A stretch of DNA of 64,000 bases from a virus (IMGVR_UViG_3300038530_001701), one strand, 5' to 3'; shown: positions 14,930 through 62,571, numbered from the stretch's first letter. Notes: generated by a model not told the origin, from the letters alone. Translations and numbers: made by a program.

Positions 14930-14932
14930 TTA

Positions 14933-15331
14933 TTATTCTCCGTCAAATGATTGTTTTATTTTCTCAAAATAGTCAGACTCAGAGCGTCTGCTCATACGTC
15001 TCAAATCTTCTTTCATGAAGATGTCTTCTGTTGAGTAAAGGTAGGCACCAATTGAAGCTGCGCCTGATCGTCTCCATTCAAAGTCAGTCCTTTCACTGCC
15101 CTCTACTCTGTAAGTATCAACCACTTGATTTCGTAGATTTCTATGATTACATTTGACAACCTCATAAGGTCGTGTTATGTCCATGCCATTTGTAAATAGA
15201 ATCTTGGCAAATTGTGTTGGCTCTGGTTGTGGGTCAACCCAATCATCAAGTAGTTGCAAATCTGAAAAACTTAGGTAAAAGAAGTTCATATAGTTTGTTT
15301 CTCCGTAATCCTGTTGAAAAATCTTCTCCAA
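14933..15331 (-). CDS. hypothetical protein
   Basis: 132-aa ORF packed between nrdB and thyX. Confidence 0.4.
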   Translation of the reverse strand: MEKIFQQDYGETNYMNFFYLSFSDLQLLDDWVDPQPEPTQFAKILFTNGMDITRPYEVVKCNHRNLRNQVVDTYRVEGSERTDFEWRRSGAASIGAYLYSTEDIFMKEDLRRMSRRSESDYFEKIKQSFDGE

Positions 15332-15499
15332 ATATACCCACGAACAATAGAAATCATAGTGAAAATGATTGTTATTTCCATGTTCTGCATAAACGTGGTA
15401 TCCAATTCATATATTGGAGCGATTAAAAAAGTCCAGACCAGCAGCGATAGCAACCAGCCTGAACCTACATTCAATACTTGCTCAATTATAGAGTGAGTT

Positions 15500-16513
15500 T
15501 TACTCTGGCTCATAATCCCAACACGCATTTTCATCTATGAGTTGACGATGTTGAATCCAACCAAAGAAGTTACCAGAATAATAACCCAATCTATTATTAT
15601 AACCTGTCACTCCCTCTGTGTCAAGATCAGTTTCATCATCCATTGGACGAGCCTGATGTTCAAACGGAGACGCATGTACAGGCTTGCTGTTTACAAGCAT
15701 ATCGTAAATCTTCAAGGCTTTGTCAACACTATTATCTGTAAGTCGATAACTTACTTGAGCGCAACAGGATGCAGAGACCTTAATAGCATCTTCTTCAGAC
15801 AACCTTTGCTCATATTGCTGTCCATCGGGGTCTGAGTTATAGATGAAGTAGTAAGATTCATCAGAATCTTTGTAGAACTCTACATAAGGTAGGTGCCACT
15901 CGTCAACCCACAATCCATTAGGGCTTGATTGCTCCCTAGCTTCCCACATACAACGAGCAAGTTCTTTAATCTCAGGTTGAGCATCTTTATGATTACGCAA
16001 CCAGAAGAAGTTATCATACTCTGTAGCTGTACAAACTACTTTAATGAACTGGAATGGCTCTAGTAGTCTATTTACAATTTGTTTATGATAACCTGCTTCG
16101 TGGAAAGCTTCAGCGGTATAGACAGCATCTCCCATCGCCCTACGCCAAGCTTCAGCACGATCAACTTCATCATTAATTAATTGGAATAGACCTGAATCTG
16201 AAGGCTCATCAAACTCTTGGAGTGCTTCCAGAGAAATTGGCTCAACACACTCTGCTTCAGCCTGCATACCCCTCTGGTTAGCTCCCCAATGGATAGGCAT
16301 AGCAGTATTGATCTTAATATGTTCAATCATCTTTGGAACTGGAATAGCTCGGCTACTGGCAGCATTGCGACTGAACAATCTGTGAGTCATGAACTCACTA
16401 TGTATGAACCGAGGATACTCAAGCTCATACGTGGTAATTCTTTTACCTGAAGGAGATACACTATCTGCAACGATAGTAGCTGAAATACCACCCTTACCTT
16501 CAACTTTAACCAT
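15500..16513 (-). CDS. thyX: flavin-dependent thymidylate synthase
   Basis: 337 aa; ThyX-type (T/R)HRxxxxxxxS motif (THRLFSRNAASSRA); context of dNTP-synthesis genes. Confidence 0.7.
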   Translation of the reverse strand: MVKVEGKGGISATIVADSVSPSGKRITTYELEYPRFIHSEFMTHRLFSRNAASSRAIPVPKMIEHIKINTAMPIHWGANQRGMQAEAECVEPISLEALQEFDEPSDSGLFQLINDEVDRAEAWRRAMGDAVYTAEAFHEAGYHKQIVNRLLEPFQFIKVVCTATEYDNFFWLRNHKDAQPEIKELARCMWEAREQSSPNGLWVDEWHLPYVEFYKDSDESYYFIYNSDPDGQQYEQRLSEEDAIKVSASCCAQVSYRLTDNSVDKALKIYDMLVNSKPVHASPFEHQARPMDDETDLDTEGVTGYNNRLGYYSGNFFGWIQHRQLIDENACWDYEPE

Positions 16514-17093
16514 ATTTTATAATCTCCTGTGTAATTAGTCTTGCAAAGTTCTCTGGGATAATGTCTTCATTCTTCGTCCTCATTTTGATTGTATGTGCTT
16601 CCCTCACTTTTATGAAGTTCCTACTATCCCCTGAAAAGTCATTAGAGCCTTGCCCAGAAAACTGTACTATATAGATATTCTTACCACCAAATTCTGAAAT
16701 AAGTGGTAATACTTCTTCAACAAAACCTGAGTCAGTGAACACAACACCACGTTCAAAGTCTTTTAAAGAGATAGACTTAGCCGACTTCTGTCCAAAGAAA
16801 CGCTTACCAAAATGGGGTTTAGCAATTTCTTCACTAATGTAAATCAAAAACTCCCTTGGAGACATACCTCTGAACTGCGGCATCTTACTTTCCTTGTACT
16901 CACGATCTGTACAGAAGTGAATAAATTCTTCGTAACTTCTGCAATCAGAGAATGGATACGCGCATTCGTAAAGGGCCGTTTTAAAGGCCCTCAACTCACA
17001 CTGATACAGGTTTTTTAAGCAACGTCCGATGGTATCCTTACCAGCACCTTTTGGAGCATTGAGTAGTATGATTTTATTGCTCAGTGGGTTCAT
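16506..17093 (-). CDS. deoxynucleoside monophosphate kinase (T4 gp1-like)
   Basis: P-loop NAPKGAGKDT near N-terminus resembles T4 dNMP kinase SGVKRSGKDT; probable start MNPLS at 17093 preceded by GGGAG. Confidence 0.6.
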   Translation of the reverse strand: MNPLSNKIILLNAPKGAGKDTIGRCLKNLYQCELRAFKTALYECAYPFSDCRSYEEFIHFCTDREYKESKMPQFRGMSPREFLIYISEEIAKPHFGKRFFGQKSAKSISLKDFERGVVFTDSGFVEEVLPLISEFGGKNIYIVQFSGQGSNDFSGDSRNFIKVREAHTIKMRTKNEDIIPENFARLITQEIIKYG

Positions 17094-17598
17094 TTTCTTT
17101 AATTTTCTCCCAATTAGATTCAATATTCTCAACAAGATCGCTAAGAACAACACCAACAAAATCGTGTGGTTTCAATAGCTTACCAGATTCCTTGTTGATA
17201 ACACCATAATACTCTGTACCATCTTGCATTGTTACGAGACGAACGAAGGTCTCGATACCTTGCTCTTTGTAATACTCCAAAGTCTCGTTAGCATGTTCTG
17301 GGTCTCGATGGAATTTTGTGAGGTTATTGTCACAAACCCTTTCCAATGCCTCTGGTGTTTGATATCCAGAGAGAATCAATTTTTGGTAGAGACCGATAGC
17401 TGTTACCATGATATCTGCTACACCATCAAGGAGTTCTTGAGGGTCTTCGTCAATAGCTGCGTCCAAAGTCTCTTTGGTTTCTTCTAGAACCAGTTCAGTT
17501 TGACTGCGAATCTGCTCCCAGAATTCTTTAGTATTAGGCTCAACCGGCTGGTGACCGATCAAGGTATTCATCAAATAGATTTTATCGTATGCCGACAT
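17074..17598 (-). CDS. mazG: MazG-like nucleoside triphosphate pyrophosphohydrolase
   Basis: 174 aa; EExxE.L.D...E.LD..GD metal-binding helix (ELVLEETKETLDAAIDEDPQELLDGVADIM). Confidence 0.7.
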   Translation of the reverse strand: MSAYDKIYLMNTLIGHQPVEPNTKEFWEQIRSQTELVLEETKETLDAAIDEDPQELLDGVADIMVTAIGLYQKLILSGYQTPEALERVCDNNLTKFHRDPEHANETLEYYKEQGIETFVRLVTMQDGTEYYGVINKESGKLLKPHDFVGVVLSDLVENIESNWEKIKENEPTEQ

Positions 17599-17601
17599 TA
17601 A

Positions 17602-18540
17602 TTAACCTCCTGCTACGTTCATTAGAGTGTTTTCCATTTCTTCTTTTGTCTTCAAGTTTACACGACCACGGTTCCAGTGTCCACATTCTTTACACTGATA
17701 AGCGTCAAAAGTTGACAGGTTCGTGCTGACTGTTCCGTTCTTAACCAAGTCAGTTGAAGCGCACACTGTACAGGACTTCTGACCTGTCTGTACGTACTGT
17801 GCTACGTTTACATGTGTAGAGTACCACGGAGCCACTTTCTTGTAAAGTTTTTCAAGCAAAACAACATCGTACACATTATAGTCAAGCATTTCCTCGAAGG
17901 CTGATTCATCACCATTCATGCAACGTGACCAAAGGCTAAACCCACCAGTCTGTACCTTATTACCAATACCAAGATACTCACACACACTATCAAGCCTGTT
18001 TGAAGGGAATCTGAAGCGTTGCTTTAGAATCTTCAAAGTGTCAACTGTCTTATACGGCTTAGGTGGTTTGAAGCCATGATAGAGCATACGAGCATTCAAC
18101 GTAGGCATATCAAAACGATCACCATTATGAGCAATGATAATATCAGCTTCGTTGATCATATCATAGATAGATGCAATCAATGGTTGATCATCTTCATTTT
18201 CCATATTCTCAGGGTAGTAATGCAGCGAGTCAGATGCAACTGTATCATCGCCAAGCCACTTAGCAGCCCAAGTGAGAACGTAACCTTCTTGAGCTACCTG
18301 ATTCTGACCAACATTCTGCTTAAACCTTCCCCAAACCCATGCAAGTGTTGGTGCTGTTTCAATGTCAAGTACAAGAATCTTTGCTTTAGGTTTTTCCTGT
18401 TTGGTTGGTTCACTACCAAAAGCTTTCTTCCAATCCCAAGCAGTAGACTTAGGGATACCTGTGATCTTCTCAACTGCTCTGTAGGAATAACCATCAGCAA
18501 GCATTCCTAATACTCTTTCTTGAATTTCTGTCATTTCCAT
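17602..18540 (-). CDS. HTH-domain / DEDD-type 3'-5' exonuclease fusion with C-terminal zinc ribbon
   Basis: N-terminal HTH (YSYRAVEKITGIPKSTAWDW); DnaQ-like ExoI motif ILVLDIETAP; C-terminal CTVC...CKECGH. Confidence 0.5.
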   Translation of the reverse strand: MEMTEIQERVLGMLADGYSYRAVEKITGIPKSTAWDWKKAFGSEPTKQEKPKAKILVLDIETAPTLAWVWGRFKQNVGQNQVAQEGYVLTWAAKWLGDDTVASDSLHYYPENMENEDDQPLIASIYDMINEADIIIAHNGDRFDMPTLNARMLYHGFKPPKPYKTVDTLKILKQRFRFPSNRLDSVCEYLGIGNKVQTGGFSLWSRCMNGDESAFEEMLDYNVYDVVLLEKLYKKVAPWYSTHVNVAQYVQTGQKSCTVCASTDLVKNGTVSTNLSTFDAYQCKECGHWNRGRVNLKTKEEMENTLMNVAGG

Positions 18541-18541
18541 T

Positions 18542-18988
18542 TTATACCTCGTCTCTTTCAGTAAATACGTATGAAACTCTAGGATTATCTTTATCCACTT
18601 CAGTTTCGTGTAGGACTTCCATCTTCACATAATCATCATTATCGTCAATAAGAACACCAAGCTCTGTTAAAGCATCGTATAGAAACTTGGTGTTAGCAGC
18701 AATGAAGTTATGTTTATCTGATCTTCTTCTACTTTGCTTGTAAAGCTTTGCTGTAACATCAACTGGTTTTGTAAACTTAATATGATCTTGACCAGTATCT
18801 TTCAGTATTTGCTCTACCATATCTTTAAACAACTTCTTAGCTTTGTTGTACTCAAGATAGTGTGCATTGTTTGTATAATTTAGGTTTACTCGGAACTTCT
18901 TAGGTTCTTTTGTTTTCCTAGGGATAAGAACTACCACAGGGCAGTCTATCCTAAGAACCTTAGACACTAGGAATCTCCCAACGATCAC
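18542..18988 (-). CDS. RusA-like Holliday-junction resolvase (tentative)
   Basis: 148 aa, basic, with conserved acidic cluster IDDNDDY as in RusA family; among recombination/replication genes. Confidence 0.4.
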   Translation of the reverse strand: MIVGRFLVSKVLRIDCPVVVLIPRKTKEPKKFRVNLNYTNNAHYLEYNKAKKLFKDMVEQILKDTGQDHIKFTKPVDVTAKLYKQSRRRSDKHNFIAANTKFLYDALTELGVLIDDNDDYVKMEVLHETEVDKDNPRVSYVFTERDEV

Positions 18989-19961
18989 CTTTCATTCTTT
19001 GCATCCAAAGAAGATCAGCCTGCTCTTTGATAATCTCATCAATAGTTCTTTCGTATCTCACTTCATTCCAACCTTTGTAGTGGTATGTTTCAGTTTCTTC
19101 ATCCCAACCAGTCTGTGTTTTGTCGTCCCACTTTTGCTCAGAGTACCATGCGTGGTAAATCTCATAACAACGCTCATAAAGTTCCCTTTCAGAAACACAA
19201 TCCTCTAGAAGACTCTCAGCGCCTTTATCGCCAATTGTGGCAATCTTTCTGACACCATACTTACTAGCGATTGCTTTTGATAAGCCTTGACAGCCGGGAA
19301 TGTTATCTACGGTCTTATCACCTTTAAGAAGTTGTTGGTAAAAACCACGATTAGCTTCTTTAAGTGTTACAAGTTGTGGTTCATCATCTTTATCTAGATG
19401 ATAATGATAACCCGGAGTATTTCGTAAGTCTTTATCAACGGATGCACAAACTGTTGTTGGGTTCTGTGGGTTGGCGAGGTATCCTCGGTAGGCAATGACA
19501 GAACACGCATCATCAGCCTCGTTACCATCAACAACAATAGCCCCATACTTCTTAATAGCGTAGTCCCTTACATTGTAAAACCAATACGGTTTCTCTGTAT
19601 GCTCACGGTTGCCCTTATATTTAAGAACTGTAGCAACTTCCTCTCTATAGTTGCCCTTGCCAGTGAGATACAATTTGTACTTATCTGCTTTGAGGTTGTT
19701 TTTCAAAGCTTTCATTTGCATATCGAAAGCTGCTAATGCTTCCTTTTCTTCAAAGAAGACTGTTCTAGGTCTAATCTCATAAAGAGTTGTGTCAACCATA
19801 AAGAATTCTGATTGATCTTTCAAGTAACCTTTTGCTTCTTTACTATATTCAAATGTATCAACTAATTCTTCATCTTCATAAATATCGTAATAAACATGTT
19901 GTCCAACAGACGCTGCACGATAAACAAGAATATCACCATCAATTGCTACGGTATCAAACAT
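18960..19961 (-). CDS. 5'-3' exonuclease / flap endonuclease (T7 gp6 / T4 RNase H-like)
   Basis: PIN/FEN N-terminus MFDTVAIDGDILVYRAA; probable start at 19961 with AAGGAG RBS. Confidence 0.75.
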   Translation of the reverse strand: MFDTVAIDGDILVYRAASVGQHVYYDIYEDEELVDTFEYSKEAKGYLKDQSEFFMVDTTLYEIRPRTVFFEEKEALAAFDMQMKALKNNLKADKYKLYLTGKGNYREEVATVLKYKGNREHTEKPYWFYNVRDYAIKKYGAIVVDGNEADDACSVIAYRGYLANPQNPTTVCASVDKDLRNTPGYHYHLDKDDEPQLVTLKEANRGFYQQLLKGDKTVDNIPGCQGLSKAIASKYGVRKIATIGDKGAESLLEDCVSERELYERCYEIYHAWYSEQKWDDKTQTGWDEETETYHYKGWNEVRYERTIDEIIKEQADLLWMQRMKGDRWEIPSV

Positions 19962-20011
19962 ATTTTCTCCTTTGCAAAAGAAAAGGGGCAGCCGAAGCCG
20001 CCCCAAATCTA

Positions 20012-21365: not shown

Positions 21366-23648
21366 TTAGTGACATTCTGCCCAATTAGTTCCAATGTCAT
21401 AGTCAGCGGCAAGATTGACACGGAAGTTGTAGTATTCACCAGCTTCTGCCATAGTTTCAGCAAATGTCTGACCAATAATTGACCAACCTCTCACAAACTT
21501 ACCATCCTTCTCATGCACGTTACTTAGAACTTTACCTTCAATTTCAAAAGCTTCAGCTTCTTCTTTGGTGTTAAACTCATACATATCGATAAGCTCTGGT
21601 GAGACCTGCCACTGACATTCGTCGTGATAGTGAATCATCTGTGAAGCTTTAATCTCAGAATCCCTGAAAGGATTGCTGTAAAGACCTTGCTTCTTAAGCC
21701 TACGCATGTAGAGAACCATCTGACGCTTCATTACGATAGCACCTGTACTTTGGAACAACACGTTCAACAGAGAGTGTTCTGAACGAGTCATAAGCTTACG
21801 ACCGTCGATACCTCTGATAAACACCTTACGTCCCTTGGTTTTCCAGTAAGTTGCAACACGTTCTTTCAAAATCTTGAGAGGCAGTGAAGCGTCCCAAAAG
21901 TCTTCAAAGATTTTCTCAGCTTCTGCCAGACTAACACCAAGGGTCTTGGCAATTTTTCTAGCCTGTGCGCCGTATGTTGTTGCATACTTCAGAGTTTTAG
22001 CTGTATCCCTTGTAACATCCATCTTTGCAGCGTTAACTGTGTGAATGTCATGAGGCTTCTCAGAAATCAAAGCCGTAGCATATTCATCACCACCTTCAAA
22101 TTGCTTAGTGAAGTGAGCCTCGACCCTAGCCTCTAAGCCAGCAGCGTCTGAACCAATCTGGTACTGTCCTTCAGGGACTCCGAATAACGCACGAATAAAC
22201 TCACCGTATGTACTGGATACCCTCGGGACGTTGGCAACATCCTTATGTGTATATCTGAAGGTATTTGTACCAGCGGTATCAGCCGGTGTCGATATACGTC
22301 CATCTTGATATATTCTGTCATCGTTCAACCATCCTGTACCTTTCTCAGACTTAATAGCATTACGTCTGTGGCGATATGTCAACCACAATACAAGATCGCC
22401 AATCCAGTCAAATTTACTCCCAAGCTCTACAAGGTTTGGACAGATTTGTTTGTCTGTACCAACAGTCAGAGACGGAGTTGAAAGTACACGCAAAGGTCTC
22501 TCTCGATCATGCTTTAGAAGCTTCTTACGGAACTCCTGTGGCTTAATCTTAAGATGCTTAAGCCTTGGCTTCATGTACTCACTTTCCATAGTCTGCTCGA
22601 TGTAACGCTCACAAGCAGCCTTGAACTTGACGAAGTTTTGCTTCTTCTTCTTAGAGTCGAGAGTCAAATCTTTCTCTTTCCAAGCAGAAGGTTCCCATCC
22701 TTGAGAGATCAAGTATTGCTTAATAGCATCCTGATCAGCCAACTTCATAGGTTCTGTGCCCAACACAGGTTCTTGTGGCATCGGAATCGACCACTCCTTT
22801 CCAAAACCTTTTGCCAACCAATCTCCATAATCATCTTGAGAATATTCCATTTCATGTTTCTCAAGGAAGTTAATCATGTGTTGTGACAACTCACCGCTTT
22901 TCTTAACCTGAATCTTAGGCGGTATAAACTTCTTAGCAGTGGTCTTAGTCATTGGTTTTGCAGGCAGCAGAGGTTCAATCTTAGCCTCAATTGTTGCCAT
23001 CTTCTCGTCAAGGTCTTCAACACACCACTCAGCAAGCTCTCGATTAAATCTAAAGCCAAAGTGACTTTGAATTGTCACATAGTAACGAATAGTTTGTTCC
23101 AACCAAAACGCTTCAGACCAATCCCAACTACGCCACTCTTGAATCATCAAGTGATCATAGACTTTATGGTTCAAGTTAACGTCCTGTACACAATACTTAA
23201 GCATTGCTTCAGAATACTCAGACCAATCAGACTGTTTACCAAAGTCGTCTTTGTGGAAAGAAAGTCGATCCCCCCAAGGTTCAAGACCATGACCACTTAA
23301 GCGATCTGGATTCAGCAATTTGCTTAGTACAAGTGTGTCGCAAATCTCTACTTCTTTACCATCGATTGTGAAAGGGTCTGCATCAAATTTCAGACCAAAT
23401 ACCAACTCAATTACAAGCAAGTCATAGTCAATAATGTTGTGACCAATTACCTTAGTACACTTCTTAAAGAACTCAGGAAAGTCCCAAAGGTTTTCTGGTG
23501 TGAATTTATAGATCATTCCAGACTTAACATCCTTTGCTACAATACAGTGAACCATAAATGTTGGTTTCAACTTGAAAGGATATTGGTTATAATTTATACT
23601 ACTGCTATCAAGTAAGCCAGTAGCTTCAATGTCAAATACTACTTCCAT
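21366..23648 (-). CDS. DNA polymerase, family A (T7-like) with 3'-5' exonuclease domain
   Basis: 760 aa; ExoI DIEATGL, ExoIII YCVQDV; pol motif A SDAAGLEARV, motif B RDTAKTLKYATTYG, motif C HYHDE. Confidence 0.9.
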   Translation of the reverse strand: MEVVFDIEATGLLDSSSINYNQYPFKLKPTFMVHCIVAKDVKSGMIYKFTPENLWDFPEFFKKCTKVIGHNIIDYDLLVIELVFGLKFDADPFTIDGKEVEICDTLVLSKLLNPDRLSGHGLEPWGDRLSFHKDDFGKQSDWSEYSEAMLKYCVQDVNLNHKVYDHLMIQEWRSWDWSEAFWLEQTIRYYVTIQSHFGFRFNRELAEWCVEDLDEKMATIEAKIEPLLPAKPMTKTTAKKFIPPKIQVKKSGELSQHMINFLEKHEMEYSQDDYGDWLAKGFGKEWSIPMPQEPVLGTEPMKLADQDAIKQYLISQGWEPSAWKEKDLTLDSKKKKQNFVKFKAACERYIEQTMESEYMKPRLKHLKIKPQEFRKKLLKHDRERPLRVLSTPSLTVGTDKQICPNLVELGSKFDWIGDLVLWLTYRHRRNAIKSEKGTGWLNDDRIYQDGRISTPADTAGTNTFRYTHKDVANVPRVSSTYGEFIRALFGVPEGQYQIGSDAAGLEARVEAHFTKQFEGGDEYATALISEKPHDIHTVNAAKMDVTRDTAKTLKYATTYGAQARKIAKTLGVSLAEAEKIFEDFWDASLPLKILKERVATYWKTKGRKVFIRGIDGRKLMTRSEHSLLNVLFQSTGAIVMKRQMVLYMRRLKKQGLYSNPFRDSEIKASQMIHYHDECQWQVSPELIDMYEFNTKEEAEAFEIEGKVLSNVHEKDGKFVRGWSIIGQTFAETMAEAGEYYNFRVNLAADYDIGTNWAECH

Positions 23649-23696: not shown

Positions 23697-25547
23697 TTAA
23701 TAGGAGGCTGGTTCATCTACGTGTTCTTGAGTGTAGGCACCAAGCATTCCGAAGTCTTCCTCATCATCGCTATAGTCACCTTCAGGGTCATACCCTTCCT
23801 CAAGTCTTGCTGTTTGATTGTTGTAGAACCACCATCCAGCAGGGCCTGTATTACCAGTCCTACGGGCTTTACTTACAACAACCTTAGTTGTGTTACGAAC
23901 TCTCTCGTCAGGGTGTTCTTTGTCTCTCATCAAAAGAATGTTGACCATACCAACTTGGAAGATAGAACCTGAACCCTTAATATCTTCTTCGTGAATGTCA
24001 GCACCAGTTGAGTTAGCCTTAGCTCCAGAACCACTTTTACGAACGTGAGCTACGTTAATGTGAACAATCTTCTCACGCTTTACAAAGCGAAGTAGCCATG
24101 ACATAAACTCATCCATACCTTCGTTCTGTTTACCGCTTAAAGCGAGTGTCAGAGGGTCTAGAATGATACCCTTACAGTCACAACCCTTAACCATGTATTC
24201 AATCTTATTCTTAAGATCATCGTCACATACATCACCTTGATGGTCAAGAATAATAAATCTATCCTCACCATTAGGTAGCTTAGTAAGTTGATCATAAGCA
24301 TCCTTGAACTTCTCGGTCTGGTAAAGTTCGCGTTTTTCTTCATCATCCATGTTAGCAAGTTTGATGCCAAGGTGTACACTTACCAAGTTCTCGATAAGTT
24401 CACCCATATCACTCTCTAGAGGAATAACACCAATCTTATGCTCTGAATTGAAAACGAAATGATAAAGAAACTCATTTACAACCGTAGTTTTACCTACTGA
24501 ACTCGCAGCAACTACGTTGATAATCTCACCTAAAGCAAAACCACCATTCATCATTTGTTGAAGACGAGCAGCGAAAGCAGGCAAACCTAGCTTAACCCAA
24601 TTAGCTCTTTCCATCAAAGCGTCAAAAGTTTGACTACTACCTACAACACCAGCAGGAGTGTATTTACCATGCTGTGCAGCTTTCCAGAAGGCTTGGTATA
24701 GTTCGTCCTGAAGATCATCCTTTACGTAATCACAAGGGTCATTCAGTCGAAGATCAGCAATATGTGCTTGCCCCGGTTTCAATAGCTTTGCAACAGCTTC
24801 AGCGGCTTTTTTACCAGCTTCGTCATTGTCAAGCATGATGATAACTTTCTCGAAAGAAGTCACCCAATCATAGTTTGCTTTGACCTGCTTATCTGTAGAA
24901 GGTTCCCCTGTCACACCAGAAACTACAGGAGTTTCATACTTAGGGTTCTTCTCCATCATGGTTTGTTTCATAGCCATAGCATCTTCTTCACCACCTACGA
25001 TGATGAGGAACTTACCACCTTTCGGATAAAGATGTTGACCAAACATTTCACAATCATTTTTTACACTACCAATCGCTCGGAAGTGTCGTTTGTCTTTCTT
25101 AGGAACTGAGAGATTTCTGACTTTATAGCCGACGATCTCACCGCCTTTTGTTACTGGATAGTAACGCTTGAAGGGTTTGCCGTTTGCATCGAACTCTGTG
25201 CGTACACCATACATTTCGTTGATTGGCTTTTTCAGTTTACGCTTTCGATCACCACGACATTCTAATTCTAAAACATCATCTAATTCTTCTACCACTTGGT
25301 TATGATCCTCCCAACTATCATCTGCCTCTATTACTCCTTCAAAATCCTCACCATAGAAGGTCTCGACAAGTTTTGGTGGAATATAGCCCTTACCACCACT
25401 ATCACCACAGGCGAAGCAGTAACCGTCTATAAACTCATTACCTTTCTTGTCGAGCTTCTTGTAAAGGGTTACGGCATCCGAAGAACCGCAACCCTCATGA
25501 GGACAGGGAAGGTGTGTTTTATAAGTATCACCTTCTTGTTGACTCAT
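23697..25547 (-). CDS. bifunctional primase-helicase (T7 gp4-like)
   Basis: 616 aa; N-terminal Zn finger CPHEGCG...CFACG, TOPRIM region, DnaB-family Walker A AASSVGKTT. Confidence 0.9.
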   Translation of the reverse strand: MSQQEGDTYKTHLPCPHEGCGSSDAVTLYKKLDKKGNEFIDGYCFACGDSGGKGYIPPKLVETFYGEDFEGVIEADDSWEDHNQVVEELDDVLELECRGDRKRKLKKPINEMYGVRTEFDANGKPFKRYYPVTKGGEIVGYKVRNLSVPKKDKRHFRAIGSVKNDCEMFGQHLYPKGGKFLIIVGGEEDAMAMKQTMMEKNPKYETPVVSGVTGEPSTDKQVKANYDWVTSFEKVIIMLDNDEAGKKAAEAVAKLLKPGQAHIADLRLNDPCDYVKDDLQDELYQAFWKAAQHGKYTPAGVVGSSQTFDALMERANWVKLGLPAFAARLQQMMNGGFALGEIINVVAASSVGKTTVVNEFLYHFVFNSEHKIGVIPLESDMGELIENLVSVHLGIKLANMDDEEKRELYQTEKFKDAYDQLTKLPNGEDRFIILDHQGDVCDDDLKNKIEYMVKGCDCKGIILDPLTLALSGKQNEGMDEFMSWLLRFVKREKIVHINVAHVRKSGSGAKANSTGADIHEEDIKGSGSIFQVGMVNILLMRDKEHPDERVRNTTKVVVSKARRTGNTGPAGWWFYNNQTARLEEGYDPEGDYSDDEEDFGMLGAYTQEHVDEPASY

Positions 25548-25559
25548 TTTTCTCCCTAT

Positions 25560-27131
25560 TTAGAATGACTTAGAAACTCGTTCACGAATCTGTGACAGTG
25601 TTTGCAGACGTTTCATATCACCATCTTCAAATACAACTTTCAATTCGTTACTCTCTGAGTTTACATCAGACCAGCCAACTCTGTCAACTAGTTTCAGCAT
25701 GTTGCCTTGAATTTCCTCGTCTTTGATAACCATCAGTAGACCAGTAGCAGACTTCTTAGTCCCATCATCAGTCACAGGGTCTTTAAAAATTTCCTTACCC
25801 TCGCCGTTGATTTCACAGTAAGTTGCCTTCATAGCCATACCAAAAGTATCACGAGTAATCATCTGGTAAGTATATGAACCTACGCCGAAGACTACGTTAC
25901 CTGAACTAAAGCCTTTGTCTTTAAGACGCTGGCAGATTTGCTTACAGCGTTCCAAAGTAATAGAGTCACCATAGATCAATCCAACGTGGCTGTCAAGCTC
26001 TTTGTAACCTTTCTCGTTAACAGTGCCACCGAATTGCTCCCAAAGGATTTGAATAGCCCCTTTGATAACATTCTCGCTCAGAGGTTCGCAACCGCCTTTG
26101 AATGCAGCACCATCCCAAGCTTCCAGTGGGTAAGGCACACCGTCACGAGTACGGCGATAAGAGCCTTCTGGCAGACCACAGATGATATCAACAGGGTCTC
26201 CACTATCAGGACGAAAGACTACCTTACCGTCACGCTTCATGATTTCATCTTTCAATGCTGGTGCAATCTCAGTTAGAACCTTCCACAAGTCCCAAGTATC
26301 TGAAACGATACCTACAAGGCCATTCGGATACAGTTCTGTGATGAATCGCTTGTAGGTATTGAACTCGTCTTCCTTACCACCAGCACACATTACAGAGTGT
26401 TCTGAAGCAGGAATAGAAGTACCAATCAGTTCTTCTGTAGGCTCTGCTCCATAGTAACGCTCACAAGTATCAATAGCAGGAATGTTATCAGTTCCTACAA
26501 AACTCAGCAAGTGCCCTACACCACTGTTTGCAGCATCAGCACGACCAGACATACCACGCATAGAAAAGTCGTGTACGCTGAACGGGATCATTTCTTTAGC
26601 TGCGCCAGTTTCTTCTGCATACTTCTCAAGAATCTTACGATATTCCCGAGCAATGGTAGCGACAGTAGAGGGCTTCCAGATTTCAGCAGACATAACAGTT
26701 TCAATGTAGTTAGTCAACCAAAAGAATTCTGGCAGTGTATTCTCTACAGTAAACATTGGAACCTTGAAAGGAACAATTGTACCTTCAGGCAGCGCACGAA
26801 TACGCAGCGGCAGATAGCCAAGGTTGTGCAATTCTTCAATGTGTGAAAAATCAATGGCATCGGGGCCAAGTGAAGTTTCGATACGGCTGCGGTAATAACC
26901 AACAGCATTGTCTAAGGGAACATTAAAGAAGTTCTCGTTCCATTCTTCAATCAAGTGTTCCAGAATAAACTTCTGAAGACCTACAAATACAACTCCATCT
27001 ACATCACGACCAAAGTGCTTACCGCTACGTGGAGTAAAGTTAGAGAAAACTAGTTCAGTACCTTCAGGATACTGGAACTTGTGGTTTACTTTGTAAAAAT
27101 CTGTTTGCGTCATTGGGTGTTGTTTGTTCAT
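25560..27131 (-). CDS. nicotinamide phosphoribosyltransferase-like enzyme (NadV/Nampt family; possible Namat of NARP1)
   Basis: 523 aa; N-terminal TDFYKVNH matches NadV TDSYK.xH signature; size as NadV. Confidence 0.75.
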   Translation of the reverse strand: MNKQHPMTQTDFYKVNHKFQYPEGTELVFSNFTPRSGKHFGRDVDGVVFVGLQKFILEHLIEEWNENFFNVPLDNAVGYYRSRIETSLGPDAIDFSHIEELHNLGYLPLRIRALPEGTIVPFKVPMFTVENTLPEFFWLTNYIETVMSAEIWKPSTVATIAREYRKILEKYAEETGAAKEMIPFSVHDFSMRGMSGRADAANSGVGHLLSFVGTDNIPAIDTCERYYGAEPTEELIGTSIPASEHSVMCAGGKEDEFNTYKRFITELYPNGLVGIVSDTWDLWKVLTEIAPALKDEIMKRDGKVVFRPDSGDPVDIICGLPEGSYRRTRDGVPYPLEAWDGAAFKGGCEPLSENVIKGAIQILWEQFGGTVNEKGYKELDSHVGLIYGDSITLERCKQICQRLKDKGFSSGNVVFGVGSYTYQMITRDTFGMAMKATYCEINGEGKEIFKDPVTDDGTKKSATGLLMVIKDEEIQGNMLKLVDRVGWSDVNSESNELKVVFEDGDMKRLQTLSQIRERVSKSF

Positions 27132-27141
27132 AATTTCCCTC

Positions 27142-27372
27142 CTAATCTATGTATTTAACAAGTATGTGTACAAAAGACAGTACGATACTTACGAATAACA
27201 AAGATGTAAGTACAGCCTTTGTCTGAACAAATAGCCCTACAATAAATGCGAATATAAGGCCACAGACCATTGCGACTACTACAAATAGTACTACAACAGC
27301 ACATATCTTGTCAATTATTGGTACTTCTTGATTCCAGAACCAATCTCTTAAGTTGATCAGAGTATCTTTCAT
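27142..27372 (-). CDS. small membrane protein
   Basis: 76 aa, two hydrophobic helices. Confidence 0.35.
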   Translation of the reverse strand: MKDTLINLRDWFWNQEVPIIDKICAVVVLFVVVAMVCGLIFAFIVGLFVQTKAVLTSLLFVSIVLSFVHILVKYID

Positions 27373-27887
27373 TTGTCCTCCTTATAAATTACACAAGTAA
27401 GATCGCTAAATCCGATCAAATCAATAATCTCCTCAATCATATCCCAATTACCACCAGCAAGTCCAGCACCAATTTTAGGGATACCAATACGACAAGGTGC
27501 TTGTGGATTCATATCATACAGCAATTTAATCTGATTGAACACCTGACCAACAGCATCGTAATCAACGTGTACCAGATTTCTTGGAGCGAATCGGTATTGA
27601 GTATATGCGTTGATAACAGTGAAGTTGTATGGCTTGCTGTTAATTTTTGGAGGTACATTGTGTGAAACCCCCGACCAACCATTAACATGAGCCTGAGTAA
27701 ACATACCAAGCTTATACTTATCACCCTTCTGAGTCATTTGATCAATCAAATAAGCTTTAGGGTATCTCTGCCTTATTTGAGCAGCAATACCTGAACCCAT
27801 AGTGTTAAAACAGTTACAGCCGTGTACAATAATGTCGAACTTACCGGCTTCTGCCATGTCCAAAAGATTACCTTCCACATATTTCAT
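27369..27887 (-). CDS. macro-domain protein (ADP-ribose binding/processing)
   Basis: 172 aa; IVHGCNCFNTMGSGIAAQI resembles macro-domain Nx(6)GGGVxxAI loop. Confidence 0.55.
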   Translation of the reverse strand: MKYVEGNLLDMAEAGKFDIIVHGCNCFNTMGSGIAAQIRQRYPKAYLIDQMTQKGDKYKLGMFTQAHVNGWSGVSHNVPPKINSKPYNFTVINAYTQYRFAPRNLVHVDYDAVGQVFNQIKLLYDMNPQAPCRIGIPKIGAGLAGGNWDMIEEIIDLIGFSDLTCVIYKEDK

Positions 27888-28252
27888 TTAAACCTCCGGT
27901 CTTCCCAAGTTTCTGCTCTATCTGTACCATGATAAGGACAGGCATCTGTGATGATATTAAAGAATGTACCCATTCTATCACGATTATCCATCTTAGGACA
28001 AGTACAACCTTGTAATTCAAACCAGTAGCTATGGTACGACTTATCCAAAGGGAACTTCCAGATAAGTTGCATAGTATACTCAAGACCTCTCACAATATCT
28101 ACAGCTTGCTTTGGAGTGTCACACAGCATACTAGGTCTGGCTAGAATTTGATGGAGGTTTTTATACACAGAGTTAAGTCCATGCATATCCTCATCTGTCA
28201 ACCCCCTACTTTTTGCCAGAGCAACATTAAACTTAAACTCTGTGTTTTCCAT
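27884..28252 (-). CDS. hypothetical protein
   Basis: 122-aa ORF, start overlaps preceding gene stop (ATGA). Confidence 0.4.
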   Translation of the reverse strand: MENTEFKFNVALAKSRGLTDEDMHGLNSVYKNLHQILARPSMLCDTPKQAVDIVRGLEYTMQLIWKFPLDKSYHSYWFELQGCTCPKMDNRDRMGTFFNIITDACPYHGTDRAETWEDRRFK

Positions 28253-28260
28253 AAAACCTC

Positions 28261-28632
28261 CTAGTAAGTGTCATTTGGTATTTTCAGTGAATCAAGTAGG
28301 GATGATACACCAGAACTCCGACCAAGCCAACCTTCAAATTTACCAGTCCACTCGGGGATACCAAGCTCATCCATAAGGTCACAGTCAAAGACAACAGCAG
28401 TTTCATCGTTGTCAAGCATAACAGTGTAACCCAACCTTGTGTTCATCTTGACCAGAACCCAACGAAATTCATCATCATTCTTATCGAACATTCTTTGGAA
28501 TGATTTAACTTCTTTAATATACTGATCTTTTCCAATCAATTCTAGTTGATTAGTCACGGAACAACTCCACGGTAAACACTTTACCTTGATCTGATTTAGG
28601 GCCAGTATACTCGTAACACCATACTTCGTCAA
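28261..28632 (-). CDS. hypothetical protein (start uncertain; 83-nt overlap with upstream gene suggests a later start)
   Basis: 123-aa ORF. Confidence 0.35.
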   Translation of the reverse strand: MTKYGVTSILALNQIKVKCLPWSCSVTNQLELIGKDQYIKEVKSFQRMFDKNDDEFRWVLVKMNTRLGYTVMLDNDETAVVFDCDLMDELGIPEWTGKFEGWLGRSSGVSSLLDSLKIPNDTY

Positions 28633-29398
28633 TATGTTCGAGCAAAATATCTACACCTTTGGTAAACTTACCGTGAGTGACATACAGTAGAATCCTCTCA
28701 GCGCCCTTCTCACGAAGTTTCTTAGCCAGCCCTATGAACGTACCACCACCATCACAAATGTCGTCTAGGATGGTCACAGTAAGTCCTGTGAGGTCTTCTG
28801 CATACACTTCAAAGCCTGAAAGATCACCAGTCATTGTGTCACGAATTTTGTCAGCACGAATAAGATCGACACCTTTTGCTTGAGCAGCCTTCAAAACTTT
28901 CTTATAGGCACCTGCATCTGGTGAAACAAATGCATTACACATATCAAAAGGCCCTTCCTCAGTTGAGTAGACGATCTGATCCATTGTAAGTGCTTCAAAG
29001 TTATCAATAACACCTTCGATAACATCGCTGTGAGGGTCTACAACAAACACTTTGTCAAAGCCACAGGAGTTAATCAGACTACCGATAACACGCAGGCTAT
29101 GTGGCTCTCCAGCGTTTGCTACTCGGTCTTGACGACCATACGGGAAGTATGAAATCAAAAGCACAAAAGTTTTATAATTCAACCAGCTACAACGCTCAAT
29201 AGCATCTTTAAGAAGCAGAAGATCGATCAAATCTTGATCAGATTCATACTGGATTCTGATTGTCAGTTGGTCGTACAGAATATTTGCAGGCGCTCTCATC
29301 TTCTGGATGGTAAGTTTACGCTCACCACACGGAAAATAAGACATTTCAATAGGCACTGTGCCTGCACTGCTATCCGCAATTACACTTACTCCAATCAT
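28550..29398 (-). CDS. ribose-phosphate pyrophosphokinase (Prs)-family enzyme; possible ADP-ribose pyrophosphokinase (Adps) of NARP1
   Basis: 282 aa; FPYGRQDR (cf. Prs PYYGYARQDRK), VVDPHS (cf. DLHA), ILDDICDGGGTF (cf. IDDIIDTAGT). Confidence 0.7.
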   Translation of the reverse strand: MIGVSVIADSSAGTVPIEMSYFPCGERKLTIQKMRAPANILYDQLTIRIQYESDQDLIDLLLLKDAIERCSWLNYKTFVLLISYFPYGRQDRVANAGEPHSLRVIGSLINSCGFDKVFVVDPHSDVIEGVIDNFEALTMDQIVYSTEEGPFDMCNAFVSPDAGAYKKVLKAAQAKGVDLIRADKIRDTMTGDLSGFEVYAEDLTGLTVTILDDICDGGGTFIGLAKKLREKGAERILLYVTHGKFTKGVDILLEHIDEVWCYEYTGPKSDQGKVFTVELFRD

Positions 29399-29628
29399 TT
29401 TACGTCCTCCGGTGTCAAATAAATTGCCTCAAAAGAACTATCGTTAAGTTCAGCGAGGGCTTTAAGTTCCATAAGCTCAGTCTTCAGCGTCTCATATTCA
29501 AGACGAGTGATGGTTGCTGTAACCCGCTTGTGTGTAAATTTTGGGCGGGGGTGCCTATCTTTGTTGATAATAGGGTTGAACCTCTCATCAAGCTTTTCAA
29601 AAATCTCAGTTACTGTTGGTTGATTCAT
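29395..29628 (-). CDS. hypothetical protein
   Basis: 77-aa ORF, stop/start overlap with Prs-like gene. Confidence 0.35.
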   Translation of the reverse strand: MNQPTVTEIFEKLDERFNPIINKDRHPRPKFTHKRVTATITRLEYETLKTELMELKALAELNDSSFEAIYLTPEDVK

Positions 29629-29821
29629 AACAAATCTCCAGAAAATATGGCTTTGCCTTCTCTTTTACTTCTTCAGCTACCTCTACTGAACCCAACTCAT
29701 GAGTCCATACAGGTCTCCCCATAATTTCTTCAATAAATTCATGAAGATCACTGAAGGGGCCACACAAAATTCCTGTGTATGCTCCAACGATTGCTGCTTG
29801 TCTTTTATCTAATCTACTCAT
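29606..29821 (-). CDS. hypothetical protein
   Basis: 71-aa ORF; GGAGG RBS directly downstream of a GGTCTCGACAGATTTTCA repeat copy. Confidence 0.35.
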   Translation of the reverse strand: MSRLDKRQAAIVGAYTGILCGPFSDLHEFIEEIMGRPVWTHELGSVEVAEEVKEKAKPYFLEICYESTNSN

Positions 29822-29823
29822 CT

Positions 29824-30069
29824 TTACCTCCTAGGTCTCGACAGATTTTCAGCCCCATACATGGTCTCGGCAGCTTTTCTAATCTCATCGATAGAGTAAA
29901 CTCCCGGTAGTCTCAGTCTCAGATAACTATCAGAGACGTACAAGATTGGGCCAGACAGGGCTACCATACCACAAGCGTAGTCTCTACCCAACTCATCTTT
30001 TGGGCCATCTTGATTGTAAATTCCAGCAAGACGCTTAAGGTCTCGACAGATTTCTACAGATTCACTCAT
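29824..30069 (-). CDS. hypothetical protein (N- and C-terminal codons lie inside repeat copies)
   Basis: 81-aa ORF; start MSESVEICRDL and end MYGAENLSRPRR both encoded by copies of the 18-bp repeat. Confidence 0.35.
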   Translation of the reverse strand: MSESVEICRDLKRLAGIYNQDGPKDELGRDYACGMVALSGPILYVSDSYLRLRLPGVYSIDEIRKAAETMYGAENLSRPRR

Positions 30070-30395
30070 ACAAATTTACCTCTTATTGCGTCCCAAGACC
30101 TTACAATAGTTTCAGGCTCGTCGTCAACCCAAATGTCAACCTCGATACCTTCTTCTCTCATAAACTCAGCCTTACCTTTGTGACCTGTGAAGTATACCTT
30201 GTAACCTTTTTCTTTAAGGAAATCAAGGTCTTCTGGAGCTACATGAGACTTCCTGTATGTTACCACAATTACATGCCAATTGAAATGCTCGAATACTTCC
30301 ATCACACTTGTAAAAAGATGTGGATGGTCACTAATTGTTTGGTCGAAATCGAAGGCTATTGTCTTAGGTCTCGACAGATTTTCAGTTCCATACAT
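30066..30395 (-). CDS. small HAD-superfamily phosphatase-like protein
   Basis: Likely start MYGTENLSRPK at 30395 (GGAGGA RBS); HAD motif I FDFDQT; N-terminus encoded by repeat copy. Confidence 0.45.
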   Translation of the reverse strand: MYGTENLSRPKTIAFDFDQTISDHPHLFTSVMEVFEHFNWHVIVVTYRKSHVAPEDLDFLKEKGYKVYFTGHKGKAEFMREEGIEVDIWVDDEPETIVRSWDAIRGKFV

Positions 30396-30428
30396 AGAAA
30401 AATCCTCCCTAAAGTATATGTACATCGA

Positions 30429-30458
30429 AGTATACACACACTCGGGGAGGATTGTCAA
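30429..30458 (-). promoter_or_regulatory. sigma70-like promoter for leftward (minus-strand) module
   Basis: On minus strand TTGACA-18 nt-TATACT about 35 nt upstream of the ATG at 30395. Confidence 0.5.
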
Positions 30459-30708: not shown

Positions 30709-30783
30709 CTTACAAGGTTATTGTAAGGATAGGATAGCATGGCTACTCGCCTGCTGTCAAGCTTAGATTCTAGAAAAATTTAC

Positions 30784-35733: not shown

Positions 35734-37146
35734 ATGTCTAGACTAATTAAAGGTATTCAGCAAGGCAACGCAACAGCACGTACTGCTAACGGTGCCAAAA
35801 CTCATGCAACCTCACACAATGCCTGTGTAGACTTGTTTGGTGTTGTTGGTTCAGCACGTAACATGGATAAGGGTACTCTGGTACGTATGTTTGATAACGC
35901 ATACGGTGAGAATCCTGAAGTAGCTGTACGTATCATGCAGTGGCTTCGTGATGTTCGTGGTGGTGCTGGTGAGCGTCAAGCTTTCCGTAACCTGTTCGCT
36001 GATCTGATCGAAAACCATCTGGAAATTGCCAAGCGTGTTGTGGTGAAAGTTCCTGAGCTTGGTCGTTGGGATGATGTTCTGGTTGCTGTTGGTACTCCTT
36101 TGGAGCCTGAAGCATTTGAACTGATTCGTGCAGGTCTGAACACACCTGAAACTGCTGGTCTCTGCGCTAAGTGGATGCCGCGTCAAGGTGAAGTAGCTTA
36201 CAAGCTGCGTAAAGCATTCTCTATGACTCCGAAAGGCTGGCGTAAGATGCTTGTAAGCCTCTCTAACACTGTTGAGCAGAAAATGTGTGCAAAGCAGTGG
36301 CATGAGATTGAGTACGGCAAACTGCCTTCTAAGGCTGCTGCAATGTACCAGAATGCATTCAAGCGTAACGACGAGGCACGTTACAACCGTTATGTAGAAG
36401 GTTTGCAAAAAGGTACTGAGAAAATCAATGCCGGTGCGATTTTCCCTCATGATGTTGTAGTGTCTGCACGTAAGGGTAATGATAAGGTTGCTACTGAACA
36501 GTGGAAGGCTCTGCCAAACTACATGGAAGAATCTGGTGAGAACATCTTGCCAATGATCGATGTATCTGGTAGTATGTCTTGGACTAATGTCGGTGGTAAT
36601 CCGAACCTGACTTGCCTTGACGTTGCTCTGGCTCTTGGTATCTATACCTCTGAGCGTATGGGTGGAATGTTTGCAAATCACTACATTTCATTCTCTGAGC
36701 GTCCTGTACTTGGTAAGGTTCAAGGTACTACCCTGAATAGCCGTGTACATAACGTAATGGGTAAGCATGTTGGTTACAGCACTAACTTCCAAGCTGCTTT
36801 TGAGTTGATTCTGCGAACAGCGGTTGACAACGATCTGGCACAGGAAGAAATGCCAACTATGATTCTGGCTCTGTCTGATATGGAATTTAACGCTGCTGGT
36901 CGTGGTAATACTAACTTCCAAGCAATCAAGCGTAAGTTCGAAAATGCAGGCTACAAGATGCCTAAGTTGGTTTTCTGGAATCTGAATGGTCGTGAAGGTA
37001 ACATGCCTGTCACTGTTCATGATTCAGGTACAGCACTGGTTAGCGGGTTCTCGCCTGCAATCCTGAAGTCTGTACTTTCAGCGAAAACTGTAACTCCGGT
37101 TGATATTATGCTTGACACGGTAATGGTTGATCGGTACAATTTCTAA
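35734..37146 (+). CDS. vWA-domain protein (MIDAS DVSGSM) with N-terminal alpha-helical domain; candidate Ro60/TROVE-like RNP protein
   Basis: 470 aa; MIDAS motif LPMIDVSGSMSW followed by vWA-like beta-alpha pattern; Ro60 = TROVE + vWA architecture; directly downstream of tRNA-mimic RNA cluster; strong RBS aaaggagg. Confidence 0.55.
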   Translation: MSRLIKGIQQGNATARTANGAKTHATSHNACVDLFGVVGSARNMDKGTLVRMFDNAYGENPEVAVRIMQWLRDVRGGAGERQAFRNLFADLIENHLEIAKRVVVKVPELGRWDDVLVAVGTPLEPEAFELIRAGLNTPETAGLCAKWMPRQGEVAYKLRKAFSMTPKGWRKMLVSLSNTVEQKMCAKQWHEIEYGKLPSKAAAMYQNAFKRNDEARYNRYVEGLQKGTEKINAGAIFPHDVVVSARKGNDKVATEQWKALPNYMEESGENILPMIDVSGSMSWTNVGGNPNLTCLDVALALGIYTSERMGGMFANHYISFSERPVLGKVQGTTLNSRVHNVMGKHVGYSTNFQAAFELILRTAVDNDLAQEEMPTMILALSDMEFNAAGRGNTNFQAIKRKFENAGYKMPKLVFWNLNGREGNMPVTVHDSGTALVSGFSPAILKSVLSAKTVTPVDIMLDTVMVDRYNF

Positions 37147-41577: not shown

Positions 41578-41826
41578 ATGTACGGTAAAATGAAGTATGT
41601 TCGTTTTGTGGATTTTAACGAAATTGAGTGTATCATTGTTTTTTCTACTCACATGAACCACAGAGAGACTGTCAGAGGAATCGGGCATATTAAAGTAGTG
41701 AGTGCTGGTTTTGTTTATCAGTCTTCTGGCCTTTTATTCTGTGAAGGTCGCTCTGAATCGCTGAATGTTGACAGTAATCCAGAAGCCGATACAAAATTAC
41801 TACGAAAGCAGCTTCAAGGTCTATGA
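41578..41826 (+). CDS. hypothetical protein
   Basis: 82-aa ORF, RBS ggagggg. Confidence 0.4.
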   Translation: MYGKMKYVRFVDFNEIECIIVFSTHMNHRETVRGIGHIKVVSAGFVYQSSGLLFCEGRSESLNVDSNPEADTKLLRKQLQGL

Positions 41827-42146
41827 AAGTTGATGTAGAATTACTCAGAAGACTCAGAGCACAAATGTTGATCCATTGTTACCTGTATTACTGGATGGAC
41901 TCACCAATCTGGACTGATGGGTTCTGGCAGAGTAAAGCAGACGCCCTTCAGAAGCTTCAGGAAGGCTATTTAGAGGCTGGCCTGAGTATTGATATAGGTT
42001 TCTACGATGATGCCTTCAGGGACTTCACAGGAGCTACAGGAGCACACTTACCAAGAGATGATTATGTAGTTAGTAAAGCTATTTATATTTATCGTCTGCA
42101 CACAAAAGAAAATGTTGACTTCAACAGCCTTGCTGGTGTAAAGTAG
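41823..42146 (+). CDS. hypothetical protein
   Basis: 107-aa ORF, ATGA overlap with previous. Confidence 0.4.
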   Translation: MKVDVELLRRLRAQMLIHCYLYYWMDSPIWTDGFWQSKADALQKLQEGYLEAGLSIDIGFYDDAFRDFTGATGAHLPRDDYVVSKAIYIYRLHTKENVDFNSLAGVK

Positions 42147-59296: not shown

Positions 59297-59298
59297 AG

Positions 59299-60319: not shown

Positions 60320-60320
60320 T

Positions 60321-62570: not shown

Positions 62571-62571
62571 A

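Follow-up and report, generated by a model that had tools for sequence, protein, structure and literature searches.

The closest described counterpart of the locus reported here is the NARP1-AP operon of Vibrio phage Gary (NAD+ reconstitution pathway 1 with its associated phosphatase), in which the macro-domain gene adpp lies between adps and namat on one strand. Gary Adpp dephosphorylates ADP-ribose-1''-phosphate (ADPR-1''-phosphate), the three-gene operon overcomes aRES, and the operon is reported to include a Poa1p-like macro gene in 15% of NARP1 phages (bioRxiv 10.64898/2026.01.28.702374). The NARP1 of Bacillus phage SPbetaL1, described alongside that of the E. coli phage Bas63 (PMC12774641), is a tight two-gene operon without a macro gene, and the Adps of a further Vibrio phage, ICP1, is available in crystal and cryo-EM structures (PMC13586617). 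NARP2 of Vibrio phage KVP40 has the same aim of restoring NAD+ and employs the Nampt NadV together with the NMNAT/Nudix protein NatV; the Nampt-fold catalytic chemistry is common to Nampt and Namat. Here, we describe a locus at positions 25560–29398 (minus strand) of a 64,000-nucleotide stretch of viral DNA, IMGVR_UViG_3300038530_001701, hereafter referred to as the window. This locus, from a marine phage known from its metagenome-assembled genome (MAG) sequence, is very probably a NARP1-AP operon encoding Adps, Adpp and Namat. The assignment is carried by the families and clades to which the proteins belong, by diagnostic residues and by the order and linkage of the genes, all demonstrated in this analysis. 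NARP1-AP has already been described, with both biochemical and structural characterisation; the window adds an example and no new mechanism.

Organization of the locus and proposed pathway

The block comprises a Prs-like gene (282 amino acids), a NadV-like gene (523 amino acids) and four small genes between them, all on the minus strand:

28550–29398, minus strand: Adps, predicted ADP-ribose pyrophosphokinase, Prs-like (Pfam Pribosyltran_N, Pribosyl_synth and Pribosyltran; clade; signature residues)
28261–28557, minus strand: orf98, small conserved protein of 98 amino acids (GTG start overlapping the Adps stop codon)
27884–28252, minus strand: orf122, 122 amino acids with a CxC...CxxH motif (phrog_16704)
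27369–27887, minus strand: Adpp, predicted Poa1p-like macro-domain phosphatase (Pfam Macro, 8.7e-5; phrog_335)
27142–27372, minus strand: 76-amino-acid protein with two hydrophobic segments (Kyte-Doolittle profile)
25560–27131, minus strand: Namat, predicted nicotinamide ADP-ribose transferase, Nampt-like (Pfam NAPRTase and NAMPT_N; clade; clamp motif)

Open reading frames (ORFs) and Pfam matches confirmed the extents and motifs that the original prediction had given for the two outer proteins, namely FPYGRQDR, VVDPHS and ILDDICDGGGT in the Prs-like protein and TDFYKVNH in the NadV-like one. Three small genes, one of them coding for a macro-domain protein, had been proposed between the pair; the macro domain was recovered by Pfam, and the count was corrected to four (orf98, orf122, the macro gene and the 76-amino-acid ORF). 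The genes are tightly packed: at four of the five junctions from Adps to Namat, the stop and start codons overlap or the genes are no more than 10 nucleotides (nt) apart, and both the start and the stop codon of the macro gene overlap those of its neighbours. Adps and Namat are separated by 1,418 nt. Directly after Namat, and on the same strand, follow a primase-helicase gene (23697–25547) and a family A DNA polymerase gene (21366–23648), in agreement with the predicted location of the locus inside the replication module.

From characterised homologues we infer both the enzyme activities and the anti-defence effect of these proteins. A host defence of the SIR2, TIR or SEFIR type would split NAD+, releasing ADP-ribose (ADPR) together with nicotinamide. 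Adps would transfer the beta-gamma pyrophosphate of ATP to the terminal ribose of ADPR (ADPR + ATP -> ADPR-PP + AMP), and Namat would then replace the pyrophosphate with nicotinamide, yielding NAD+ directly (ADPR-PP + nicotinamide -> NAD+). A RES-type NAD+ phosphorylase (aRES) would instead leave ADPR-1''-phosphate, and Adpp would first strip the phosphate to let ADPR enter the pathway.

The Prs-like protein carries Adps signatures

A competing explanation is ordinary nicotinamide salvage, either as NARP2 or with the assistance of the host: Prs would supply phosphoribosyl pyrophosphate (PRPP), Nampt would form nicotinamide mononucleotide (NMN), and an NMNAT of the host, or one of the phage that was not seen, would complete NAD+. 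In favour of this explanation, Prs and Nampt are the names given to the two proteins by Pfam, NCBIfam and public annotation. Both proteins were placed phylogenetically and compared at diagnostic residues. For the Prs-like protein, a neighbour-joining tree was built from 54 sequences. The window protein grouped with 45 Namat-linked Prs-like proteins, including the validated Adps of SPbetaL1, FADO and Gary. Nine Prs, of which six are canonical and three are plasmid paralogues, were split from the rest in 196 of 200 bootstraps (98%), a placement which speaks against salvage. Its identity to validated Adps is 35% (Gary), 31% (SPbetaL1) and 28% (FADO), compared with 19–27% to Prs.

In the ICP1 Adps structures, ADPR sits in the ancestral groove for ADP and ribose-5-phosphate, the ATP donor is bound through a remodelled PP loop and beta-hairpin, and the regulatory C-terminal alpha11-12 are lost (PMC13586617). 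Mapping onto the ICP1 structure revealed that the window protein keeps F22, R89, H123, D161, K184, D212, D213 and D216 (F18, R87, H121, D161, K185, D212, D213 and D216 in ICP1), K184 being the catalytic lysine, as well as the PP loop and the lid phenylalanine. The PP loop reads DDICDGGGTF, in which G217 takes the place of the Thr of Prs and the lid residue F221 that of its Leu or Ile; the hairpin KIRDTMTGD contains a two-residue 'TG' insertion that is present in Adps and absent from Prs, and DPHSDV stands in place of the Prs motif DLHAxQIQGFF. Both the ICP1 and the window protein have about 280 amino acids and are devoid of alpha11-12, and the N-terminal helix is also missing from the window protein. 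Aligned against Adps and Prs together, the protein thus presents the features of the former and lacks the hallmarks of the latter, which again argues against the salvage reading.

Profile searches gave a similar picture. The specific PRK models of Prs (NCBIfam equivalog or subfamily) scored 58–103 bits against cut-offs of 296–536 (for instance, 103 against 297), and the sole Prs model passed was the broad TIGR01251 subfamily (121 against a cut-off of 113). The score with phrog_619 was 257 bits, compared with 248–285 bits for validated Adps and 193 bits for E. coli Prs. Judged by the NCBIfam cut-offs and by full-length architecture, the protein does not qualify as a canonical Prs, and its clade and signature residues identify it as a predicted Adps.

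The NadV-like protein groups with Namat

A phmmer search of all PDB sequences with the NadV-like protein returned SPbetaL1 Namat (9w5x/9w5w) as the top match with 580.7 bits, followed by a phage-like entry (435 bits), Xcc Nampt (255 bits) and mammalian Nampt (~240 bits). PHROG families do not part Namat from Nampt, as both belong to phrog_448, and a tree and the clamp motif were therefore used to separate them. The neighbour-joining tree compared five NARP2-type phage Nampt (the KVP40-like PVA8, KP27, Aes012, RSL1 and LucasX, whose Nampt gene adjoins a NadM/Nudix gene) with 40 Adps-linked sequences, that of the window included. The window protein was placed in the Adps-linked clade, apart from the five Nampt, in 200 of 200 bootstraps (100%), a second placement at odds with salvage. 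Identity amounts to 52–57% with the Namat of SPbetaL1, FADO and ICP1 (57% with SPbetaL1 over the trimmed alignment) and to 32–36% with the Nampt group (about 33% with KVP40-type Nampt).

Namat proteins possess a 'selectivity clamp', which comprises a helix (SCH) with the motif GS-X-Phi-X-Phi-X-Phi-TRD and a variable loop (SCL) with Arg, Lys or Tyr as its third residue (PMC12774641). In the window protein, the SCH motif is GSYTYQMITRD (residues 418–428) and hence of the Namat type, as in SPbetaL1, while all five Nampt sequences carry GG[GA]LLQ....RD at this position, which speaks against salvage. The SCL loop reads ...PRSGKHFG... (K38-H39-F40), with Lys at the third position as described for Bas63-type loops (PMC12774641). 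The two adenine-stacking residues of SPbetaL1, F392 and Y396, correspond to SCH positions 3 and 7, which are occupied here by the aromatic Y420 and the non-aromatic M424, respectively. The Met is common to the closest relatives of the window protein, encoded by two related loci (L003 and L004), and it is conceivable, if unlikely, that it alters the donor selectivity of this Namat subclade. In favour of salvage, the Met might weaken the recognition of adenine, and Namat enzymes show residual PRPP-to-NMN activity in vitro (PMC12774641); single clamp mutations in Namat cost just 1.3–1.7 fold (PMC12774641).

The catalytic core, shared with SPbetaL1 Namat, is kept (D11, Y13, F189, R192, D215, A242, SEHSVMC, R307, D309, G388-D389, R427 and D428), and both the catalytic His and the Arg equivalent to R306 are present. 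A 27-residue insertion (residues 325–351) follows DPVDIICG at a hypervariable site, where Gary Namat and the L003 and L004 proteins carry different, longer insertions. Alignment against Namat thus found a Namat-type clamp and an intact core, and by clade, clamp motif and core residues the NadV-like protein is a predicted Namat. The original prediction of a NARP1-type Adps/Namat pair in preference to plain Prs and NadV salvage is supported by the phylogeny, the diagnostic residues and the gene linkage described below.

Alternative routes to NAD+

Salvage would also call for an NMNAT, and the original prediction had noted none in the window. Among the 60 window ORFs of about 100 amino acids or more, no CTP_transf_like or NUDIX Pfam match was found (one set of matches being the best 25 of 28 families), and KVP40 NatV had no homologue among the window ORFs. 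Past its right end, the window is continued by 10 kb with terminase, portal, protease and capsid genes, among which no NMNAT is annotated and no Nudix gene was found. As this right-hand 10 kb is structural and the window begins in tail genes, the remaining ~12 kb of the genome most likely consists of structural genes as well. Furthermore, Osterman et al. found no phage encoding both pathways. Although the genome extends partly beyond the window, we regard ordinary salvage as highly improbable given the two clade placements, the signature residues and the Namat-type clamp.

NARP3, which consists of PnuC and NadR, was also considered and rejected: these Pfam families are absent among the matches listed for the 60 window ORFs, and the 76-amino-acid membrane ORF is far too small for a PnuC transporter.

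The macro-domain protein resembles Adpp

Among solved structures, the macro protein is best matched by that of Poa1p from yeast, a phosphatase of ADP-ribose 1''-phosphate (6lfu, E = 1e-8). The window protein and the validated Gary Adpp both score 171 bits with phrog_335, and against the Adpp sequences of Table S1 the window protein scores 39–106 bits (Gary 60, phiAbaA1 106). All 12 columns that are invariant in seven Table S1 sequences are kept (12/12), including H22, which corresponds to the catalytic histidine H24 of Gary Adpp; an H24A mutant of the latter appears in a primer table (bioRxiv 10.64898/2026.01.28.702374). Indeed, the residues mutated in the Gary study are all present in the window: Adps K192 as K184, Namat H243 in EHSVMC, and Adpp H24 as H22. 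In the related locus L003, Adps and Namat directly flank a homologue with 62% identity, and the stop and start codons overlap. Because phrog_335 is spread well beyond NARP1, specificity for ADPR-1''-phosphate rests on context and conserved residues; on these grounds, the macro protein is predicted to be Adpp, with ADPR-1''-phosphate as its presumed substrate. The original expectation that a macro domain would fit this theme is supported by the match to the NARP1-associated Adpp.

The macro protein could alternatively accompany a plain NARP1 and have a separate job, such as de-ADP-ribosylation of protein or DNA (DarG-like, anti-ART), deacetylation of O-acetyl-ADP-ribose, or clearance of RNA-repair by-products. 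An NCBIfam match to the DarG N-terminus hints at the first of these, yet it is weak (32.7 bits), spans residues 2–49 only and falls far under the 250-bit cut-off. The second coincides with the label of O-acetyl-ADP-ribose deacetylase given to the protein by JGI. More generally, many phages that lack NARP1 possess phrog_335 macro genes, one of them located beside an orf122 homologue in Pseudoalteromonas phage J2-1, and the catalytic histidine position is Gln in the L004 homologue. With Poa1p as the best solved relative, the 12 Adpp-invariant residues in place and the gene embedded in the operon through overlapping codons, as well as directly between Adps and Namat in L003, a separate job appears very unlikely.

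The L004 homologue itself (L004:5309–5809) is 74% identical to the window protein and has Gln at the position of H22; it may be inactive or act differently.

Gene linkage and syntenic relatives

Among 80 IMG/VR loci with Namat relatives, 78 have a same-strand Adps-like gene within ~3 kb, and in the other two Namat is located at the contig edge. All 78 loci off the contig edge are thus linked, which reproduces the published 97% association between Adps and Namat (10.1101/2024.02.11.579819). The published NARP1 criterion (Osterman et al. 2024) asks that adps and a Namat homologue be no more than 10 genes apart; here, four genes lie between them. The median gap between Adps and Namat in the 78 loci is 378 nt, and just four loci reach the 1,418 nt of the window, so that the split arrangement is uncommon and not unique.

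One of the relatives, L004, is syntenic with the window and has the same order: orf130, Adps, an orf98-like gene, an orf122-like gene, the macro gene, Namat, primase-helicase and polymerase. An extra ORF of 128 amino acids (4314–4700) separates its Adps from the orf98 homologue, and the place of the 76-amino-acid membrane ORF of the window is taken by an unrelated ORF of 64 amino acids (5776–5970); the stretch from Adps to Namat therefore acts like a cargo slot of variable content. In L003, Adps, macro and Namat are contiguous, the arrangement of the tested Gary operon. The Gary operon has the same three families as the window, from which it differs in that Adps and Adpp are only ~32–35% identical and in that three extra small ORFs (98, 122 and 76 amino acids) are interleaved in the window; in addition, the Gary operon has been tested, and the marine phage is known here from sequence. 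Compared with SPbetaL1, the window has the macro gene in addition, Met in place of Y396, and an Adps of 31% identity. It differs from KVP40 in that the NadV-like protein belongs to another clade than Nampt, and in that a Prs-like partner is present and a NatV homologue absent.

Several observations nevertheless weigh against the assignment to NARP1-AP. Identity to the biochemically validated Adps proteins is only 28–35%, and that of the macro protein to the validated Gary Adpp just 32%. The ICP1 Adps residues F92 and F223 are not conserved in the window (Ala and Gly, respectively), nor are they in SPbetaL1, and V195/C197 are replaced by Ser/Phe; these positions also vary in SPbetaL1 and FADO. 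The Met at the second stacking aromatic of the Namat clamp is a minority variant, found in 7 of 84 Adps-linked sequences. Both trees were obtained by neighbour-joining with few outgroup sequences, and the phrog_335 macro family is far wider than NARP1 (2,898 phage records). Finally, the inspection for NMNAT covered the window and the adjacent 10 kb, that is, all but ~12 kb of the ~86.7-kb genome.

Other small genes of the operon

The start of orf98 is the GTG overlapping the Adps stop codon and not the TTG at 28632, in agreement with public gene calls (P0005). Public gene calls contain two close homologues only, one of which (P0006) has 55% identity, and a weak match of 26 bits was detected in L004. 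No Pfam or PHROG match was obtained for orf98, and tblastn against phage records found none. AlphaFold2 models of orf98 and orf122 had low mean pLDDT values of 55.8 (3-sequence alignment) and 60.7 (4-sequence alignment), respectively.

The orf122 protein belongs to phrog_16704 (E = 2e-30). Across 23 homologues, E58, Q62, W65, F67, C83, C85, D89, N90, C105 and H108 are invariant, as is the family pattern CTCPKMDN...C..HG, which looks like a metal-binding motif. Foldseek comparison of the orf122 model with the PDB returned no match at E <= 0.001, and the 23-sequence profile searched against PDB sequences gave helical-hairpin noise only (methyl-accepting chemotaxis protein, E = 0.0014). In 25 other loci with orf122 relatives, none had Adps or Namat within 6 kb, and four were near a macro gene. 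One example is Pseudoalteromonas phage J2-1 (L083:4929–5813), in which the orf122 homologue gp55 is directly followed by gp54, a macro 'phosphatase', and neither Adps nor Namat occurs within 5 kb; the pairing of orf122 and macro genes recurs across loci.

The 76-amino-acid ORF has hydrophobic stretches at approximately residues 22–48 and 53–72 (Kyte-Doolittle). It matched no Pfam or PHROG family and is not conserved.

Two further proteins, RyDEP and aRad1, were sought. RyDEP is a glycosidase of cyclic ADPR with a RyR (R12) domain, inserted in NARP1 operons, with the motif SHESW...GWxYG...THP. No Pfam RyR domain (PF02026) was found in the operon ORFs, and a RyDEP hidden Markov model (HMM) detected nothing in the window (best E = 2.5). 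The spacing H-x-x-W in orf122 recalls H75/W78 of RyDEP; a RyR-domain reading of orf122 was rejected because family members do not conserve this His and because hhalign against RyDEP gave a probability of 0.1%. The aRES inhibitor aRad1 (~70 amino acids, W.EGY.ATG...TYWGC.(L/F)FDN) was likewise rejected, an HMM built from the seven published sequences giving a best E-value of 0.23 in the window.

The original prediction had put forward the ORFs at 27142–28632 as candidates for further components. This proposal was not upheld, since the orf122 family is unlinked to NARP1 in the 25 other loci and is not a relative of RyDEP or aRad1. With no detectable tie to NARP1, orf98, orf122 and the 76-amino-acid ORF are treated as cargo. 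It is conceivable, if unlikely, that the wide gap is a cargo slot in which orf98 and orf122, perhaps along with orf130, would be further accessories comparable to Adpp and RyDEP, feeding other non-canonical breakdown products of NAD+ or immune signals into NARP1 or inhibiting a defence protein directly.

Occurrence and public annotation

Identical proteins are present in GenBank as QDP60398.1, QDP60401.1, QDP60402.1 and QDP60403.1, from the Global Ocean Virome MAG 'Prokaryotic dsDNA virus sp.' (GOVbin1096), and the proteins recur on 20–27 Tara/JGI/Logan contigs, the longest of 86.7 kb. GenBank names the outer proteins 'putative ribose-phosphate pyrophosphokinase' and 'putative nicotinamide phosphoribosyltransferase', and JGI names the 76-amino-acid ORF an ABC permease subunit, alongside the deacetylase label of the macro protein; the public annotation of the locus is older than NARP1. 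A megablast search of 25000–30000 against 50,697 phage records (INPHARED copy) gave no match to a near-identical phage, and therefore no annotated close relative could be used.

The locus would place NARP1-AP in an abundant uncultured marine phage (20–27 Tara/JGI contigs), and NAD+-depleting defences, including those of the RES type, may therefore act on its marine host. The rules that part Adps from Prs and Namat from Nampt, i.e., Gly and Phe in the PP loop, the hairpin insertion, the missing alpha11-12, and GS[FY]TYQ versus GGGLLQ, could serve for re-annotation.

Genomic setting and neighbouring genes

Upstream of Adps, four small ORFs are followed by a strand-switch region at ~30.5–30.8 kb with divergent promoter-like sites, and the GC skew changes sign at ~30 kb. 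A consensus scan of this region gave the following site on the strand of the operon, and a second minus-strand promoter-like site at 30458–30429:

30731–30760, minus strand: candidate sigma-70-like promoter in the strand-switch region (consensus scan: TTGACA-18-TATCCT, extended TG)

By this pattern match, the leftward unit to which the operon belongs may begin at the candidate promoter at 30731–30760. Since the operon is near the start of this unit, together with the primase-helicase and DNA polymerase genes, its genes are probably expressed early.

Four genes upstream of Adps, orf130 (30066–30458, minus strand) belongs to phrog_4256 and contains a HAD-type DxDxT motif (FDFDQT), with weak matches to the polynucleotide kinase and phosphoheptose isomerase PHROGs. 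L004 conserves it (152 bits), and a weak counterpart is found upstream of Adps in another locus (L010); its product may act as a nucleotidase or a phosphatase. A 71-amino-acid DUF7736 protein (29606–29821, minus strand; E = 1.2e-21; phrog_13999) is encoded two genes upstream of Adps.

A set of nucleotide-metabolism and auxiliary genes was found at 12267–20006 and 56184–63171, both on the minus strand. It includes both ribonucleotide reductase subunits, ThyX, a YqeY-like protein, a PRA-PH-like pyrophosphohydrolase, PhoH, a Clp protease, dCMP deaminase, glutaredoxin and a calcineurin-like phosphoesterase. A 470-amino-acid protein with DUF2828 and DUF7788 is encoded at 35734–37146 (plus strand); in L003, the NARP1-AP genes have directly upstream of them a larger ORF (L003:2140–4176), judged by eye to be possibly similar to it.

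A role as NAD+ sensors has been proposed for solo Nlig-Ia proteins, which were reported from 81 phages (PMC9503650). The window encodes a stand-alone protein of this kind, with 107 amino acids and the NAD+-binding domain Ia of NAD+-dependent DNA ligase (41823–42146, plus strand; PF22745, E = 1.4e-22), and no ligase catalytic module was detected in the window. Its gene is situated 12.5 kb from NARP1-AP, on the opposite strand.

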